Counted from the whole stretch's first letter, positions 24,155 through 26,742 are shown. The stretch: DNA of 63,808 bases, filler included, from an uncultured Gemmatimonadota bacterium (GCA_964576115.1; 3 parts of 3 records of this genome joined end to end with filler, not necessarily neighbours in it); one strand, 5' to 3'. The notes: a model not told the origin generated them from the letters alone. Translations and numbers: made by a program.

Positions 24155-24198
24155 CAATCCGGACGCAATCCGAACGCAATCCGGATACAATCGGGGTA
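24155..24198. repeat. Four 11-bp direct repeats (CAATCCGGACG consensus)
   Basis: CAATCCGGACG, CAATCCGAACG, CAATCCGGATA, CAATCGGGGTA, head to tail. Confidence 0.85.
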
Positions 24199-24280
24199 TT
24201 CTTCTCTCGCACCCGAAAACCCGGTGTGATATACTCTGTTGCAGCAGTGCCATGCTCTGTGAGAAATGTGTAAATCCTGG

Positions 24281-24310
24281 TTGACACTATTGTTCAAATA
24301 TCGGTAAAGT
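24281..24310 (+). promoter_or_regulatory. Putative sigma70 promoter for the 24361 ORF
   Basis: TTGACA-18 bp-TAAAGT. A second, extended -10 (TGnTATACT) lies at 24227-24235. Confidence 0.55.
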
Positions 24311-24360
24311 TGTCAGCCCTGGTGTTATGAGGTGCATCTGGGGCCAAACAGGTTCAGAAA

Positions 24361-25017
24361 ATGAACAAATCACTTGAAGAGATGGAAATTGACATCCGGA
24401 CCTTGTCCGGTGTTCTGTCCGCTTCCGTCATTCTGAGCCCGGATGGTAAAGACATCGATGAGATCCACATCGTATCTACCTGCGAGCGAACCCCGAAACA
24501 ACTCGTCAGGGATGTAGAAACACTGATCCTGGGAAACCACGGCATACGAATCGATCACAAGAAAATCAGTATCGCCCAGGTCCGGGATGTTGACATTGAA
24601 GCGATCGTTGATACTGAAACGGAGAGCAAAGGGGCTGAGCGCCCGTCGCGTATCCGTTTCGTCTCCGCCAGGTCCAACACGTATGGGCTGCGGTGGGAGG
24701 TCGCGGTTGAGCTCGAGAGGGGCGGCATCCCCTCTGCGGCAACGGTGAATGGTGCCGGCAGCCGCAAGAACAAGGCCCGGCTGGTCGCCCAAGCAACCGC
24801 CGAAGCGTTGAACAACTACCTCGGCGAGAAACAGGCTGTCGCTGTCGACGAGGTTCAGATCAACGAAGGAATCGGCTACAAGACGGCAGTCGTCATCCTC
24901 ACGCTTCTTGGTGACCGCACCGAAAAAGTGCTGGTCGGAAGCAGCCTGATGGATGAAGACATGCCAAAGGCAGTTGTTCATGCTACACTGGATGCAGTCA
25001 ATCGGGCTCTGACCTGA
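24361..25017 (+). CDS. Hypothetical cytoplasmic protein, 218 aa
   Basis: Globular composition with conserved-looking blocks EIHIV...PKQLVRDVET...IDHKKISIAQ and LVGS......AVVHATLDAVNR. Confidence 0.8.
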   Translation: MNKSLEEMEIDIRTLSGVLSASVILSPDGKDIDEIHIVSTCERTPKQLVRDVETLILGNHGIRIDHKKISIAQVRDVDIEAIVDTETESKGAERPSRIRFVSARSNTYGLRWEVAVELERGGIPSAATVNGAGSRKNKARLVAQATAEALNNYLGEKQAVAVDEVQINEGIGYKTAVVILTLLGDRTEKVLVGSSLMDEDMPKAVVHATLDAVNRALT

Positions 25018-25209
25018 AACTGGTCCGTGCCTGGTGCTTCGAAGCGAGAAAGAGGAAGATCGAACCTCAACAGGATGACTGAGTGAGAAAAGGTTAAAGA
25101 CCGACATCTACTCGGCTTACCTACGAGCGGAGCGAATCCCCCAGCGGAGCGGGTACTTTGCCCAACTAGCGGACGGGCAAAGATTCCACTACAGAAAGGG
25201 GGAATAGCC

Positions 25210-25269
25210 ATGTTCTGGAAGCTTTTGCTTACGGCCCTCGTTGCGACTTTATCAAAAACAAGTTGGTGA
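25210..25269 (+). CDS. Small hydrophobic peptide, 19 aa (MFWKLLLTALVATLSKTSW), not in ORF track
   Basis: SD AAGGGGG 7 nt before the ATG. Lies between the 218-aa gene and the HD-GYP gene on the same strand. Confidence 0.6.
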   Translation: MFWKLLLTALVATLSKTSW

Positions 25270-25335
25270 GCTGGTAGTTGTCGGTCTTTCCTTGTCCCCA
25301 GTCGAACTGATCTCGGATTAACTTAGGTTCAAAGG

Positions 25336-26742
25336 ATGATTCGCAGACTAGCCCTTGTCATCTATCTTGTTTCACTTAGTATTATTGCAATTGTTCTGTT
25401 TATTGTGTCGGTAAATGAGCTTGAACATTACCGTATATCAATTATTGATATATTGTTTTGGACTGTTTTTGTTGTTTGGGCTGAACTTGCCTCAATAAAG
25501 TTGCCAAAAGGTGGAGCAGCTCTTAGTGTTGGTGGAGTTGTAGATTGTTCTATTATTGTTCTATTTCCAACACCAATAGCAGCATTGTATGGAGTGTTAT
25601 CGGGCATAGTAACTTCAGTAAAACGTAAGGTTGACCTCGAAAGATTTGTATTTAATATTTCGATGTTTGCGGTAACGATGTCTGTGTCTTCATTGATAAT
25701 AAACATTGCTAATGTTAAATTATATGAAGTGGGTCCCAATATTACATCTGATATTTCTTCTGTTCCTAATTTAATAATACCGATATTAGCTCCTTTTATA
25801 TGTTCTATTATTGTATATTTCATTATAAATACTGGATTGGTCAGTATTGCAATAGGAATTAGTGAAAATGAATCGCCAATCTATATCTGGAAAACAAATT
25901 ATAAATGGACAATACCTAGTATAGCTGCAATGGGTCCCATCGGGTTGGTTATTGCATTAGTTTACTATTTGTTATCTAGTATTAACCCAATATTAGCTAT
26001 TATTGGAGTATCAGTTTTCTTTTTACCAACACTTCTAATGCGTTATGCACACAAATTATTTGTCGATGTAAATAATGCATACTTCAACTCAATAAAGGCA
26101 CTGGTTTCTGCCTTAGACGCTAGTCATCACTATACCCAAGGTCACTCTACAAGGGTGAGTCGTAATGCAGAAATTGTATCGAAACACCTCAAGCTTCCTG
26201 AAAAAGATATAGAGTCTATCAGTCAAGGCGCTTTGTTACATGATATTGGAAAGATTGGATTAGATAAATCGATCCTGGATAAAGATGGAGCCCTCTCAAA
26301 CTCAGAATGGGATCAAGTCAAACAGCATCCCGTGCTTGGTGCTAGAATAATCCATGACCTCACTTTTCTTGAGGAAGCGAAACAAGTTGTACTACATCAT
26401 CATGAACGTATCGATGGTAAAGGTTATCCCTACGGACTAATAGGAGATGATATTCCTCTTGGCGCCAAGATTGTGAATGCATTGGATTCTTTAGATGCAC
26501 TCACTTCTGATAGAGCGTACAGACATGCCTTAACTGTGGAGCAAGCACTGGATATTCTACAAACTGGCGCGGGGGAGCAGTTTGATAGAACAATTGTTAA
26601 AACGGTAACTGAACTGGTTGAATCCGGCCAGCTTGTTTTCCAATCTGAAGTGGAAGATGATGATCTTGAACCAGAGGTCATACTTACTCTCCGCGACGTT
26701 AAAGAGGCACTGAACACAGAAACAGAAGGATCACCGGTTTGA
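25336..26742 (+). CDS. Membrane-bound HD-GYP domain phosphodiesterase
   Basis: About 7 hydrophobic segments in the first ~235 aa, then YTQGHS.RV, LLHDIGKIG, HP..G, HHERIDGKGYP.GL.G..IP, DSLDALTSDRAYR. Confidence 0.92.
   Translation: MIRRLALVIYLVSLSIIAIVLFIVSVNELEHYRISIIDILFWTVFVVWAELASIKLPKGGAALSVGGVVDCSIIVLFPTPIAALYGVLSGIVTSVKRKVDLERFVFNISMFAVTMSVSSLIINIANVKLYEVGPNITSDISSVPNLIIPILAPFICSIIVYFIINTGLVSIAIGISENESPIYIWKTNYKWTIPSIAAMGPIGLVIALVYYLLSSINPILAIIGVSVFFLPTLLMRYAHKLFVDVNNAYFNSIKALVSALDASHHYTQGHSTRVSRNAEIVSKHLKLPEKDIESISQGALLHDIGKIGLDKSILDKDGALSNSEWDQVKQHPVLGARIIHDLTFLEEAKQVVLHHHERIDGKGYPYGLIGDDIPLGAKIVNALDSLDALTSDRAYRHALTVEQALDILQTGAGEQFDRTIVKTVTELVESGQLVFQSEVEDDDLEPEVILTLRDVKEALNTETEGSPV

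Follow-up and report, generated by a model that had tools for sequence, protein, structure and literature searches.

The subject of this account is a compact gene unit in an uncultured Gemmatimonadota bacterium (GCA_964576115.1), found in a window of 63,808 nt, by which is meant the whole stretch of DNA analysed, parts of three records of this genome joined end to end with filler. Window positions 1-27254 are contig C46 of a genome assembled in 144 contigs, with 64% GC and 93.66% completeness. Behind tsf, pyrH and frr (frr ends at 24074) come three open reading frames (ORFs), all on the + strand: one called for a protein of 218 aa, here named p218 (24361-25017); a micro-ORF of 19 codons (MFWKLLLTALVATLSKTSW; 25210-25269), recognized by reading of the sequence, by the relatives' alignment and by codon-position variation; and an ORF of 468 aa (25336-26742), assigned by Pfam profile matches to the HD-GYP proteins. 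The spacer between p218 and the micro-ORF measures 192 nt (25018-25209); the gap between the micro-ORF and the HD-GYP gene is short, 65 nt. A Shine-Dalgarno (SD) sequence, GGGGG (25198-25202, +), stands 8 nt before the ATG of the micro-ORF.

The upstream boundary of the unit is the frr terminator (24105-24133, +), a hairpin (AGCCCGTT / AACGGGCT) with a T-run, evident from direct reading and from cmscan alignments. Between it and p218 lie an 11-bp tandem array (24151-24192, no strand; 3.8 copies with 83% matches, Tandem Repeats Finder score 56) and a sigma-70-like promoter, TTGACA-18-TAAAGT (24281-24310, +), with 10 of 12 matches to consensus. A scan of the region gave three promoter-like sites near the module where 0.7 were expected, and the TTGACA ahead of p218 is invariant in all six aligned genomes. 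All the parts named by a sequence-only reading of this DNA are in place (frr terminator, array, promoter, 218-aa ORF, spacer, 19-codon ORF and HD-GYP gene). The array, which that reading had counted into the unit, is real but lineage-specific: it is not found in the five aligned relatives from the window's order, and therefore falls outside the conserved unit. As an operator of the module it was rejected.

The module to which this locus belongs is widespread and undescribed. A genome scan with p218 matched at least 570 species, and the 80 best loci were examined; these belong to Gemmatimonadota, Zixibacteria, Eisenbacteria, Bacillota, Coriobacteriia and other Actinomycetota, Armatimonadota and Chloroflexota. 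Most of the 80 have an HD-GYP domain 900-1400 nt after p218 on the same strand; among first-downstream ORFs, 52 of 71 match HD_5 or HD, and 20 of 71 match the membrane sensor domain MASE9 at E < 1e-5. By a rule-based search, 61 of 80 loci have a small ORF with an SD in the intervening gap, which is 270-400 nt long; and when 735 kb were searched on both strands for small ORFs with an SD and the pattern [hydrophobic]3-[AGST]-[GAS]-G-[AG], 52 of 54 lay in the 460 nt after p218. In the window's own order, p218 was found in six of 41 genomes searched, all of them members of that order.

Sixty-three loci, from about seven phyla, had at least 1800 unmasked nt downstream and could be evaluated; four (L028, L055, L066 and L073) were left out for N-runs over the gap and peptide region. 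A conserved RNA motif (described below), the peptide and the HD-GYP gene occur together in 46 of the 63. All three are missing in nine. The intermediate classes are small: peptide and HD-GYP with variants of the RNA motif (three loci); RNA motif and HD-GYP with divergent peptides that could be seen by eye (two); HD-GYP alone (two); and RNA motif and peptide with an HD-GYP remnant (one). This last locus (L095:5600-6500) keeps the RNA, a 24-codon ORF and the enclosing helix P1 intact, with only a C-terminal piece of HD-GYP left before secA, an apparent deletion. Synteny of the three parts, on which the sequence-only reading had staked its proposal, is therefore kept both in relatives of the same order and across phyla.

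The association can also be approached from the enzyme. MASE9 was matched in 73 of 201 genomes sampled from the phylum of one Bacillota carrier, and 33 MASE9 loci were inspected, some of them from the same genomes as the first set of loci. p218 lies directly upstream in 23, every one of them a MASE9-HD-GYP gene; the remaining ten have other output domains, are second MASE9-HD-GYP copies (L126, L129), belong to an 875-aa form, or abut a contig end. The peptide is present in 19 of the 23 loci with p218 and in none of the ten without it. By genome, MASE9 and p218 occur together in 68, MASE9 only in five, p218 only in 22 and neither in 106; as the 201 genomes are related, the odds ratio computed from these counts overstates the case.

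In five genomes p218 is followed by other genes, and in four a full-length MASE9-HD-GYP gene lies elsewhere. Two of these, from Zixibacteria and Gemmatimonadota, are informative: the MASE9-HD-GYP gene distant from p218 has its own TTGACA promoter, RNA motif and P1 helix, and a 22-codon ORF ending A-A-K-G-G-W. The corresponding genes of the other two genomes (G245, G247) have neither RNA nor peptide. The p218-free units imply that the unit in cis consists of RNA, peptide and enzyme, and that p218 can lie elsewhere: it is usually adjacent, may act from elsewhere, and also exists without the peptide. That the RNA, micro-ORF and MASE9-HD-GYP gene are real and form one functional unit is very probable.

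The spacer had been described in the sequence-only reading as 190 nt rich in hairpins. A spacer of nearly that length (192 nt) is there, but it is no mere spacer: it is part of a conserved RNA that encloses the micro-ORF and pairs with its SD. The element (25094-25292, +) folds at -80.5 kcal/mol, with a z-score of -5.22, and none of 200 shuffled sequences folds as well. Some 110 nt before the micro-ORF (25095-25205) are almost invariant within the order, where p218 is 63-84% identical; and parts of the element recur as a motif across phyla. The enclosing helix, P1, is formed by a 5' arm, AAAGACCGACA (25096-25106, +), and a 3' arm, UGUCGGUCUUU (25279-25289, +), both recognized from relatives, from helices found in each sequence separately and from the fold; in the predicted fold the SD is paired, and an extension of P1 (25262-25277) covers the last codons and the stop of the micro-ORF. 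Across loci, 82-164 nt separate the 5' arm, UUUGGRCCRRC, from the start codon; where the core is the usual GGNCC, the 3' arm, GYYGGYCCAAA, follows the stop by 4-61 nt. With the arms flanking start and stop, the helix encloses the ORF. In 42 of 61 loci the best long-range helix exceeded any obtained from 20 shuffles of the segment downstream. With the invariant CC/GG as anchor for 49 distinct sequences, ten positions of the P1 core are paired in at least 42, with alternation between G-C and A-U at six; the arms were selected by complementarity, which favors pairing, although it does not account for their constant place and register.

Within P1, two kinds of conserved element stand out. The first (25126-25152, +) reads AGCGGAGCG, then an anti-SD, UCCCCC (25137-25142), then AGCGGAGCGG; its AGCGRAGCG is invariant across phyla and is duplicated in the window's clade. 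The second is a hairpin, P3 (25156-25182, +), with stem CUUUGCCC / GGGCAAAG and loop AACUAGCGGAC; the loop carries UAGCGG (25167-25172), also invariant, and in the stem a U-A pair is changed to C-G on both sides in G001, a congener, and in G007, from another family of the same order. The stretch just 5' of AGCGRAGCG pairs with the SD in the window's clade, Armatimonadota, Chloroflexota and many Bacillota, and the pair takes different forms (CCCCC/GGGGG, CCUC/GAGG, CAACCC/GGGUUG). Each anti-SD matched its own SD with a mean of 10.74, against 9.76 when partners were swapped, a difference reached by none of 2000 permutations and inflated by relatedness. Other clades cover the same region by other means: in Coriobacteriia a helix of GAGAAGAC/GUCUUCUC covers the SD-AUG stretch, competing with the hairpin stem, and in loci of the Desulfosporosinus type the nucleotides that precede the AUG have their pairing partner at the end of the invariant motif. 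Conserved unpaired nucleotides, combined with clade-specific hiding of the SD, suggest a translational switch controlled by a ligand or a protein.

A regular expression for the RNA found 67 of its 70 matches within the gap after p218; in the window's own genome, at 64% GC, a simple expression of this kind gave 28 matches and is too unspecific. Rfam 15 searched over 23900-25500 of the window at E up to 1 returned only two terminator-like matches (24077-24142), and at gathering score over 14 loci returned nothing inside the gap; a known RNA family was set aside on these grounds. One wetland metatranscriptome (X7) contains two contigs from a relative, each of 151 nt, with 15 and 8 differences. 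They lie over 24946-25241, from the last part of p218 through the spacer and the conserved RNA into the opening codons of the micro-ORF, and they meet at 25093/25095, beside the start of P1. Within the 5' untranslated region of p218 (24338-24353) stands TCTGGGGCCAAAC, similar to the core of the P1 5' arm, GGRCCRRC, in a stretch (..GGGACCAA..) that is partly kept in relatives; it may be a second site for whatever recognizes P1, or chance.

In four relatives with a complete spacer the micro-ORF is exactly 19 codons long, has its ATG behind AGAAAGGGGGG and ends in Trp; the copy of a fifth is cut by a contig end. Variable sites in the window's clade fall 7, 5 and 13 on codon positions 1, 2 and 3. 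Across loci the peptides have 17-31 codons and a common form, resembling a signal peptide: a basic N-terminus and one hydrophobic helix. Their consensus, from 48 rows, is M-K-R-x4-L-x2-L-A-A-L-V-L-x-G-G-A-x5, in which conservation of the G-A reaches 90% or more. In Armatimonadota W-P-P-P is added, and the peptides of Gemmatimonadota, Zixibacteria and Eisenbacteria, which end in K-x-x-W, are shorter or differ in form. A Trp is common in the last position or close to it, so that the Trp-ended peptide noticed in the window holds up as a wider feature. The SD, the conserved frame and the hydrophobic helix are indirect signs that the peptide may be translated and lodged in the membrane. The analogy first offered, with the Agr and ComQXP pheromones, is not supported: a basic N-terminus with a hydrophobic helix points to a micropeptide residing in the membrane, or to a Sec-type precursor, more than to a modified pheromone.

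The enzyme falls into a MASE9 sensor domain (residues 1-240; 25336-26055, +), delimited by profile, hydropathy and identity comparison, and an HD-GYP catalytic domain (26056-26742, +), by profile and motifs. HD_5 (PF13487) matches residues 257-420 with 121.5 bits against a cut-off of 27.2 (E 4e-35). The HD motifs at 302 and 340, HHE at 355 and GYP at 363 are intact, as the sequence-only reading had them, and the catalytic residues and motif columns are invariant in 46 orthologues; the protein is a predicted cyclic di-GMP (c-di-GMP) phosphodiesterase. The guess that the membrane part would be of MASE type was right: MASE9 (PF20972) matches above its cut-off of 24.3, with 32.5 and 35.8 bits in two scans, and this is the sole MASE9 match in the genome. 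A simple hydropathy scan finds about seven to eight overlapping hydrophobic stretches in residues 1-236; the definition of MASE9 has eight predicted transmembrane segments, two of them short (Galperin & Chou, 10.1101/2021.11.05.467447). The passages on MASE9 in that paper name TM1467 of Thermotoga maritima and HdgA/Vnz_24090 of Streptomyces venezuelae as MASE9-HD-GYP proteins, a class to which, with both Pfam matches above cut-off, the window's enzyme belongs. They propose intramembrane ligand binding, describe the signals of the membrane domains of HD-GYP proteins, MASE9 included, as unknown, report one member as studied and poorly expressed, and mention no upstream peptide, RNA or 220-aa protein (10.1101/2021.11.05.467447).

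The sensor is a fast-evolving, compositionally odd cassette. GC content falls from 56-60% to 31-47% across 25200-27254, the final 2 kb of C46, which counts among the three 1-kb stretches of lowest GC in the genome; the stretch coding for MASE9 has 33% GC. GC at third codon positions is 0.65 in p218 and 0.35 in the micro-ORF; within the enzyme gene the MASE9 part has 0.22 and the HD part 0.32, and purM, the next gene, has 0.42. Identity to the congener is 52.5% for the MASE9 domain, against 86.6% for frr and 83.9% for p218. The AT-rich block of micro-ORF, HD-GYP gene and purM is vertically kept in this 64%-GC genome, and likewise in relatives. Two further internal islands, of 33-45% GC (C14:64000-66000 and C28:25500-27000), share with the HD-GYP region the lowest values of the genome.

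Pairing of the peptide with the sensor, which the sequence-only reading had suggested for structure modelling, found weak support only. The pair folded was not the window's own: it came from a Chloroflexota locus (L043), MASE9 residues 1-235 with a micro-ORF form of 36 codons. The median ipSAE was 0.33 (runs of 0.19, 0.40 and 0.33), against 0.01 for the best of three controls, with a partner pLDDT of at least 57 and at least 48% of contacts shared between runs. The result was graded 'weak support', a mark reached by 116 of 157 solved complexes and two of 215 mismatched pairs; at values up to 0.60, it was reached by only 18 of the 157 solved complexes and by both of the passing mismatches. Custom alignments were used, and one of the 48 rows of the partner alignment was a wrong-frame string.

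p218 has no Pfam or NCBIfam family above cut-off; its homologues form 176 clusters at E <= 0.001, every named one 'hypothetical'. An AlphaFold2 model (pLDDT 85.8) shows two domains joined by a disordered linker (78-94). The N-domain (1-75) is alpha-beta-beta-alpha-beta, ferredoxin-like; its nearest solved chains are the cytoplasmic domains of cation-diffusion transporters and EscJ/PrgK, at Z 8.4-8.9, a range common with the tool used, and an ESM Atlas feature search with this domain gave no usable match. The C-domain (96-218) has two beta-beta-beta-alpha units in the allosteric fold of LeuA and citramalate synthase: against the isoleucine-binding regulatory domain of LiCMS (3f6g_B) it gives Z 9.6 and a root-mean-square deviation of 2.8, with 109 of 115 residues aligned, and against LeuA (3fig_B) a Foldseek E of 1.8e-6. 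The LeuA/citramalate synthase domain (PF08502) dimerises and binds Leu or Ile, by the titles of the PDB entries. p218 differs in standing alone, with no catalytic barrel, and in a sequence match below cut-off: residues 96-218 score 14.8 bits with the PF08502 profile, under the 24.9 required (E 0.028), and precomputed annotation places PF08502 on two of 120 p218 homologues among the matches listed.

Sixteen residues of p218 are invariant, among them E34, H36, K46, R50, D51 and S70 in the N-domain; the invariant basic residues are K46, R50, R97, R140 and R215. Going by the model, both domains are of the kind that dimerises and binds small ligands; in the fold and profile comparisons nothing marks an enzyme or a classical nucleic-acid binder. 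The earlier idea of p218 as a cytoplasmic partner fits the predicted fold and the genome-level co-occurrence with MASE9. At one locus, in a metagenome-assembled genome of Thermincola, the peptide and two HD-GYP genes come after two tandem p218 paralogues (L041:4148-4753 and 5001-5609; 35% and 37% identity to the query).

One way to put these parts together is to regard the peptide as a small membrane partner of the fast-evolving MASE9 domain, dosed by the RNA switch, with p218 as a ligand-sensing regulator. We favor this reading tentatively, as quite possible though short of probable. The data show the parts, how they are conserved and linked, and the helices of the RNA; the translation and membrane insertion of the peptide, its binding to MASE9 and any role of p218 are all inferred. 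In this scheme, transcription would start from the conserved promoter ahead of p218; the RNA would hold the SD of the micropeptide paired, beside the invariant AGCGRAGCG and UAGCGG; a binder of these invariant nucleotides, either a metabolite or p218, would gate peptide output; the peptide would insert in the membrane beside MASE9 and modulate phosphodiesterase activity; and p218 would sense a small molecule, acting on the enzyme or on the RNA. Precedents for the membrane step exist. MgrB and SafA modulate PhoQ: each is a single-helix peptide of less than 50 aa tied to a membrane sensor, with proposed intramembrane action. The present target differs, a MASE9-HD-GYP phosphodiesterase in place of a histidine kinase; and the present peptide is shorter (17-31 aa), sits immediately 5' of its target gene within a structured RNA, and is kept across phyla.

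Several observations weigh against this scheme, or against the strength of the evidence for it. Loci linked to p218 were counted in related genomes, which are non-independent samples. MASE9-HD-GYP genes exist without the peptide (L126, L129, L136 and L137), which makes the peptide no obligatory subunit of the enzyme. In the window's own 19-aa peptide the uninterrupted hydrophobic run is only about 12 residues long and the GGA motif is missing; this peptide may be too short to span a bilayer. The ratio of non-synonymous to synonymous differences per site (pN/pS), 0.55-0.71 across clades, is saturated (pS 0.63-0.73) and makes weak evidence for coding. The fold-test controls were unrelated 36-residue proteins, not matched hydrophobic helices, and the test is given little weight on that account. 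On the RNA side, P1 helices chosen by complementarity bias the pairing counts over the 49 sequences, and structure beyond P1 is based on per-sequence folds. RNAalifold found no consensus structure in two cross-phylum MAFFT alignments; the helices are misaligned there, which explains the missing pairs and is the reason that per-sequence helices and anchored counts were used. In a Coriobacteriia set, only five of 36 pairs covary. The RNA-level data are the two 151-nt contigs of a relative from one metatranscriptome, and these are no proof of transcription.

A second perspective places the control in the act of translation, with the peptide as a by-product: ribosomes reaching the stop of the leader (upstream) ORF would melt the P1 extension, and alter the processing, stability or translation of the HD-GYP message. 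A short ORF in a structured leader stands directly ahead of the regulated gene in several known switches (the ermC and cat/cmlA leaders, secM-secA, mifM-yidC2), and the module resembles them, its SD and stop being held in helices. The window's fold agrees, with the stop and last codons inside extended P1, and so do the 3' arm lying 4-15 nt past the stop in most Bacillota, Coriobacteriia and window-clade loci, the occlusion of SD and start by clade-specific means, and the short gap from ORF to HD-GYP gene. Against this, charge, helix, G-G-A and an aromatic or basic tail are kept in the peptide across phyla to a degree well above that called for in a spacer ORF; the 3' arm of Armatimonadota is 41-61 nt past the stop, outside the reach of a terminating ribosome; and no helix was seen by eye over the ribosome-binding site of the HD-GYP gene (about 25325-25333), a region outside the computed fold, which stops at 25292. 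The weakly positive peptide-MASE9 fold test also counts on that side. The known switches differ further in that the module's peptide is a conserved hydrophobic helix, with no stalling motif or inducer known for it, and in that its long-range helix encloses the whole ORF and not only a downstream ribosome-binding site. Translation as the effector is a serious alternative, yet an unlikely one.

A related view makes p218 the center: a trans-acting, ligand-dependent RNA-binding regulator of the leader, with the peptide and HD-GYP as its targets, that would bind the AGCG repeats and open or close the SD. HutP and TRAP are regulators of this kind. The position of p218 directly 5' of the RNA in most loci suits the idea, as do the two or three AGCG repeats, invariant and predicted unpaired, and the five invariant basic residues of the protein; its beta-beta-beta-alpha units gave weak fold matches to double-stranded RNA-binding domains and ribosomal proteins, and one cluster of structural neighbors of the N-domain has Hfq in 19% of its members. 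But the protein has no recognized RNA-binding domain, and its best folds are small-molecule- or metal-sensing dimerisation domains. Moreover, G245 and G247 have p218 although their MASE9-HD-GYP genes come without RNA and peptide, and 22 of the 201 genomes have p218 with no detected MASE9. This role for p218, which would be compatible with any reading of the peptide, is rather doubtful.

The peptide might instead be a minimal secreted signal, comparable to Phr: a Sec-type ORF from which a tail of 4-8 residues, aromatic or basic, is released and sensed by MASE9, after cleavage behind A-G-G-A; the cleaving enzyme would be signal peptidase or, for Bacillota, the adjacent membrane protein DUF5317 (PF17248). 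Phr precursors have about 40 aa with a pro-region, and act on RRNPP receptors; the likeness lies in an N-region and H-region resembling a signal peptide. Among 45 peptides, NCBIfam PhrK (in the NF038040/TIGR04429 tested set) matched eight (best E 0.0036), Phr_nterm five (best E 0.018) and Pfam LPAM_1 11; all these are far below cut-off and fall on generic signal-peptide regions, and the window's own peptide was too short for the Phr/PhrK profile scan. The small residues of G-G-A at -3/-1 would suit the signal-peptidase rule, and DUF5317 directly follows the Bacillota enzyme in eight of 18 second-downstream ORFs (L024, L039, L040, L045, L062, L067, L085 and L088) and in one more Bacillota case (L073); MASE9 and DUF5317 also match the same two of 14 control genomes, those of Thermotoga maritima and Thermus thermophilus. 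However, the window's peptide is without G-G-A, and its genome, at the completeness given, is without a DUF5317 match; DUF5317 was not seen at the Coriobacteriia or Armatimonadota loci scanned; the tails are short (only 4-8 residues after the hydrophobic core, unlike Phr) and poorly conserved; no exporter or importer is linked at the loci; and the neighbor is a membrane phosphodiesterase. Such a signal is improbable. The boldest extension of it would be a kinase-free circuit: a Sec-exported precursor cut at G-G-A or K-x-x-W would yield a peptide of 4-8 residues that gates c-di-GMP hydrolysis through MASE9 from outside, the RNA serving as a riboswitch-like gate, p218 as metabolite sensor and DUF5317 (in Bacillota) as peptidase. 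We give it an equally small chance; if it were true, the low-GC, fast-evolving cassette of peptide and sensor would behave like pherotypes.

A type I toxin-antitoxin-like locus is very improbable. The mRNAs of hok and AapA1 encode toxins and are locked by 5'-3' pairing, and a hydrophobic peptide of 19-31 aa with long-range 5'-3' pairing and an occluded SD has that appearance; but strict synteny with one enzyme gene in about seven phyla and at least hundreds of species is unlike mobile loci with fast turnover, there is one copy in the window's genome, and a promoter scan of 24000-25400 found no antisense promoter-like site over the micro-ORF, the only minus-strand site being at 24316-24289, upstream of p218. 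That the module is an artefact, with the AT-rich HD-GYP and purM end of C46 joined from another organism, has next to no likelihood in spite of the GC fall over the last 2 kb: the order pyrH-frr-p218-spacer-HD-GYP and the low GC of HD-GYP are the same in G001, in G005 (same family) and in G007, contigs of two public DNA runs (possibly of the source sample) bridge 24000-25742 with 0 differences, and RNA and peptide run across the junction and are conserved. After 25742 the contigs of these runs break and depth is lower, from which no conclusion is drawn.

Of the proposal that a peptide controls a phosphodiesterase, then, it can be said that it is alive but unproven. Among the matches listed in searches of the literature on HD-GYP, MASE9 and DUF5317, no paper treats a peptide, RNA or 220-aa protein before HD-GYP. 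A related report concerns Clostridioides difficile, in which small membrane-associated proteins stand behind class I c-di-GMP riboswitches (PMC13724677, 2026). The common points are a small membrane-associated product, control by a structured RNA and c-di-GMP signalling; as described there, these proteins differ in having at least about 57 residues and four helices, in lying behind a known riboswitch class, and in not lying beside HD-GYP (PMC13724677). The present module has no Rfam riboswitch match.

The genes around the module vary by clade. In Coriobacteriia the enzyme is followed by a 400-aa protein with a degenerate HD domain, and this second-downstream gene has no Pfam or NCBIfam name; in Armatimonadota it is followed by a stand-alone HD-GYP. 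A long gene for the ribosome-hibernation factor HPF (hpf) stands upstream in six of 30 upstream ORFs scanned (L032, L039, L046, L049, L076 and L092), in Coriobacteriia and several Bacillota; secA lies downstream of the module in L072 and L095; the Armatimonadota module follows pheT and the window's follows frr, so that neighbors are repeatedly translation-related. Rfam gathering matches a few kb upstream of the module are a raiA RNA (L052:1902-2211, -), a cspA thermoregulator (L024:2571-2916) and a TPP riboswitch (L045:1703-1808). In the window, the N-run after 27254 is a contig join, so purM, the last gene of C46, is truncated at 27254 and its apparent right-hand neighborhood is not real; the minus-strand ORF at 27299-28240, after the N-run, is from another contig.

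In c-di-GMP turnover the HD-GYP enzymes are the half that is understood less well, and the module points to an undescribed form of control over a second-messenger enzyme. Peptide, RNA and p218 accompany exactly one MASE9-HD-GYP gene in each genome, both in Bacillota that can be cultured and in uncultured phyla. What is new in the spacer is a structured RNA whose long-range helix encloses a micro-ORF. Three handles are offered: a candidate intramembrane ligand or partner for MASE9; a candidate new class of regulatory RNA, with invariant single-stranded nucleotides; and an unnamed 220-aa family known from at least 570 species. The module also contributes a bacterial micropeptide that is deeply conserved yet missed by gene callers. 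The frequent placement between hpf or frr on one side and secA on the other hints, as an observation only, at a link between growth arrest or the state of translation and c-di-GMP.

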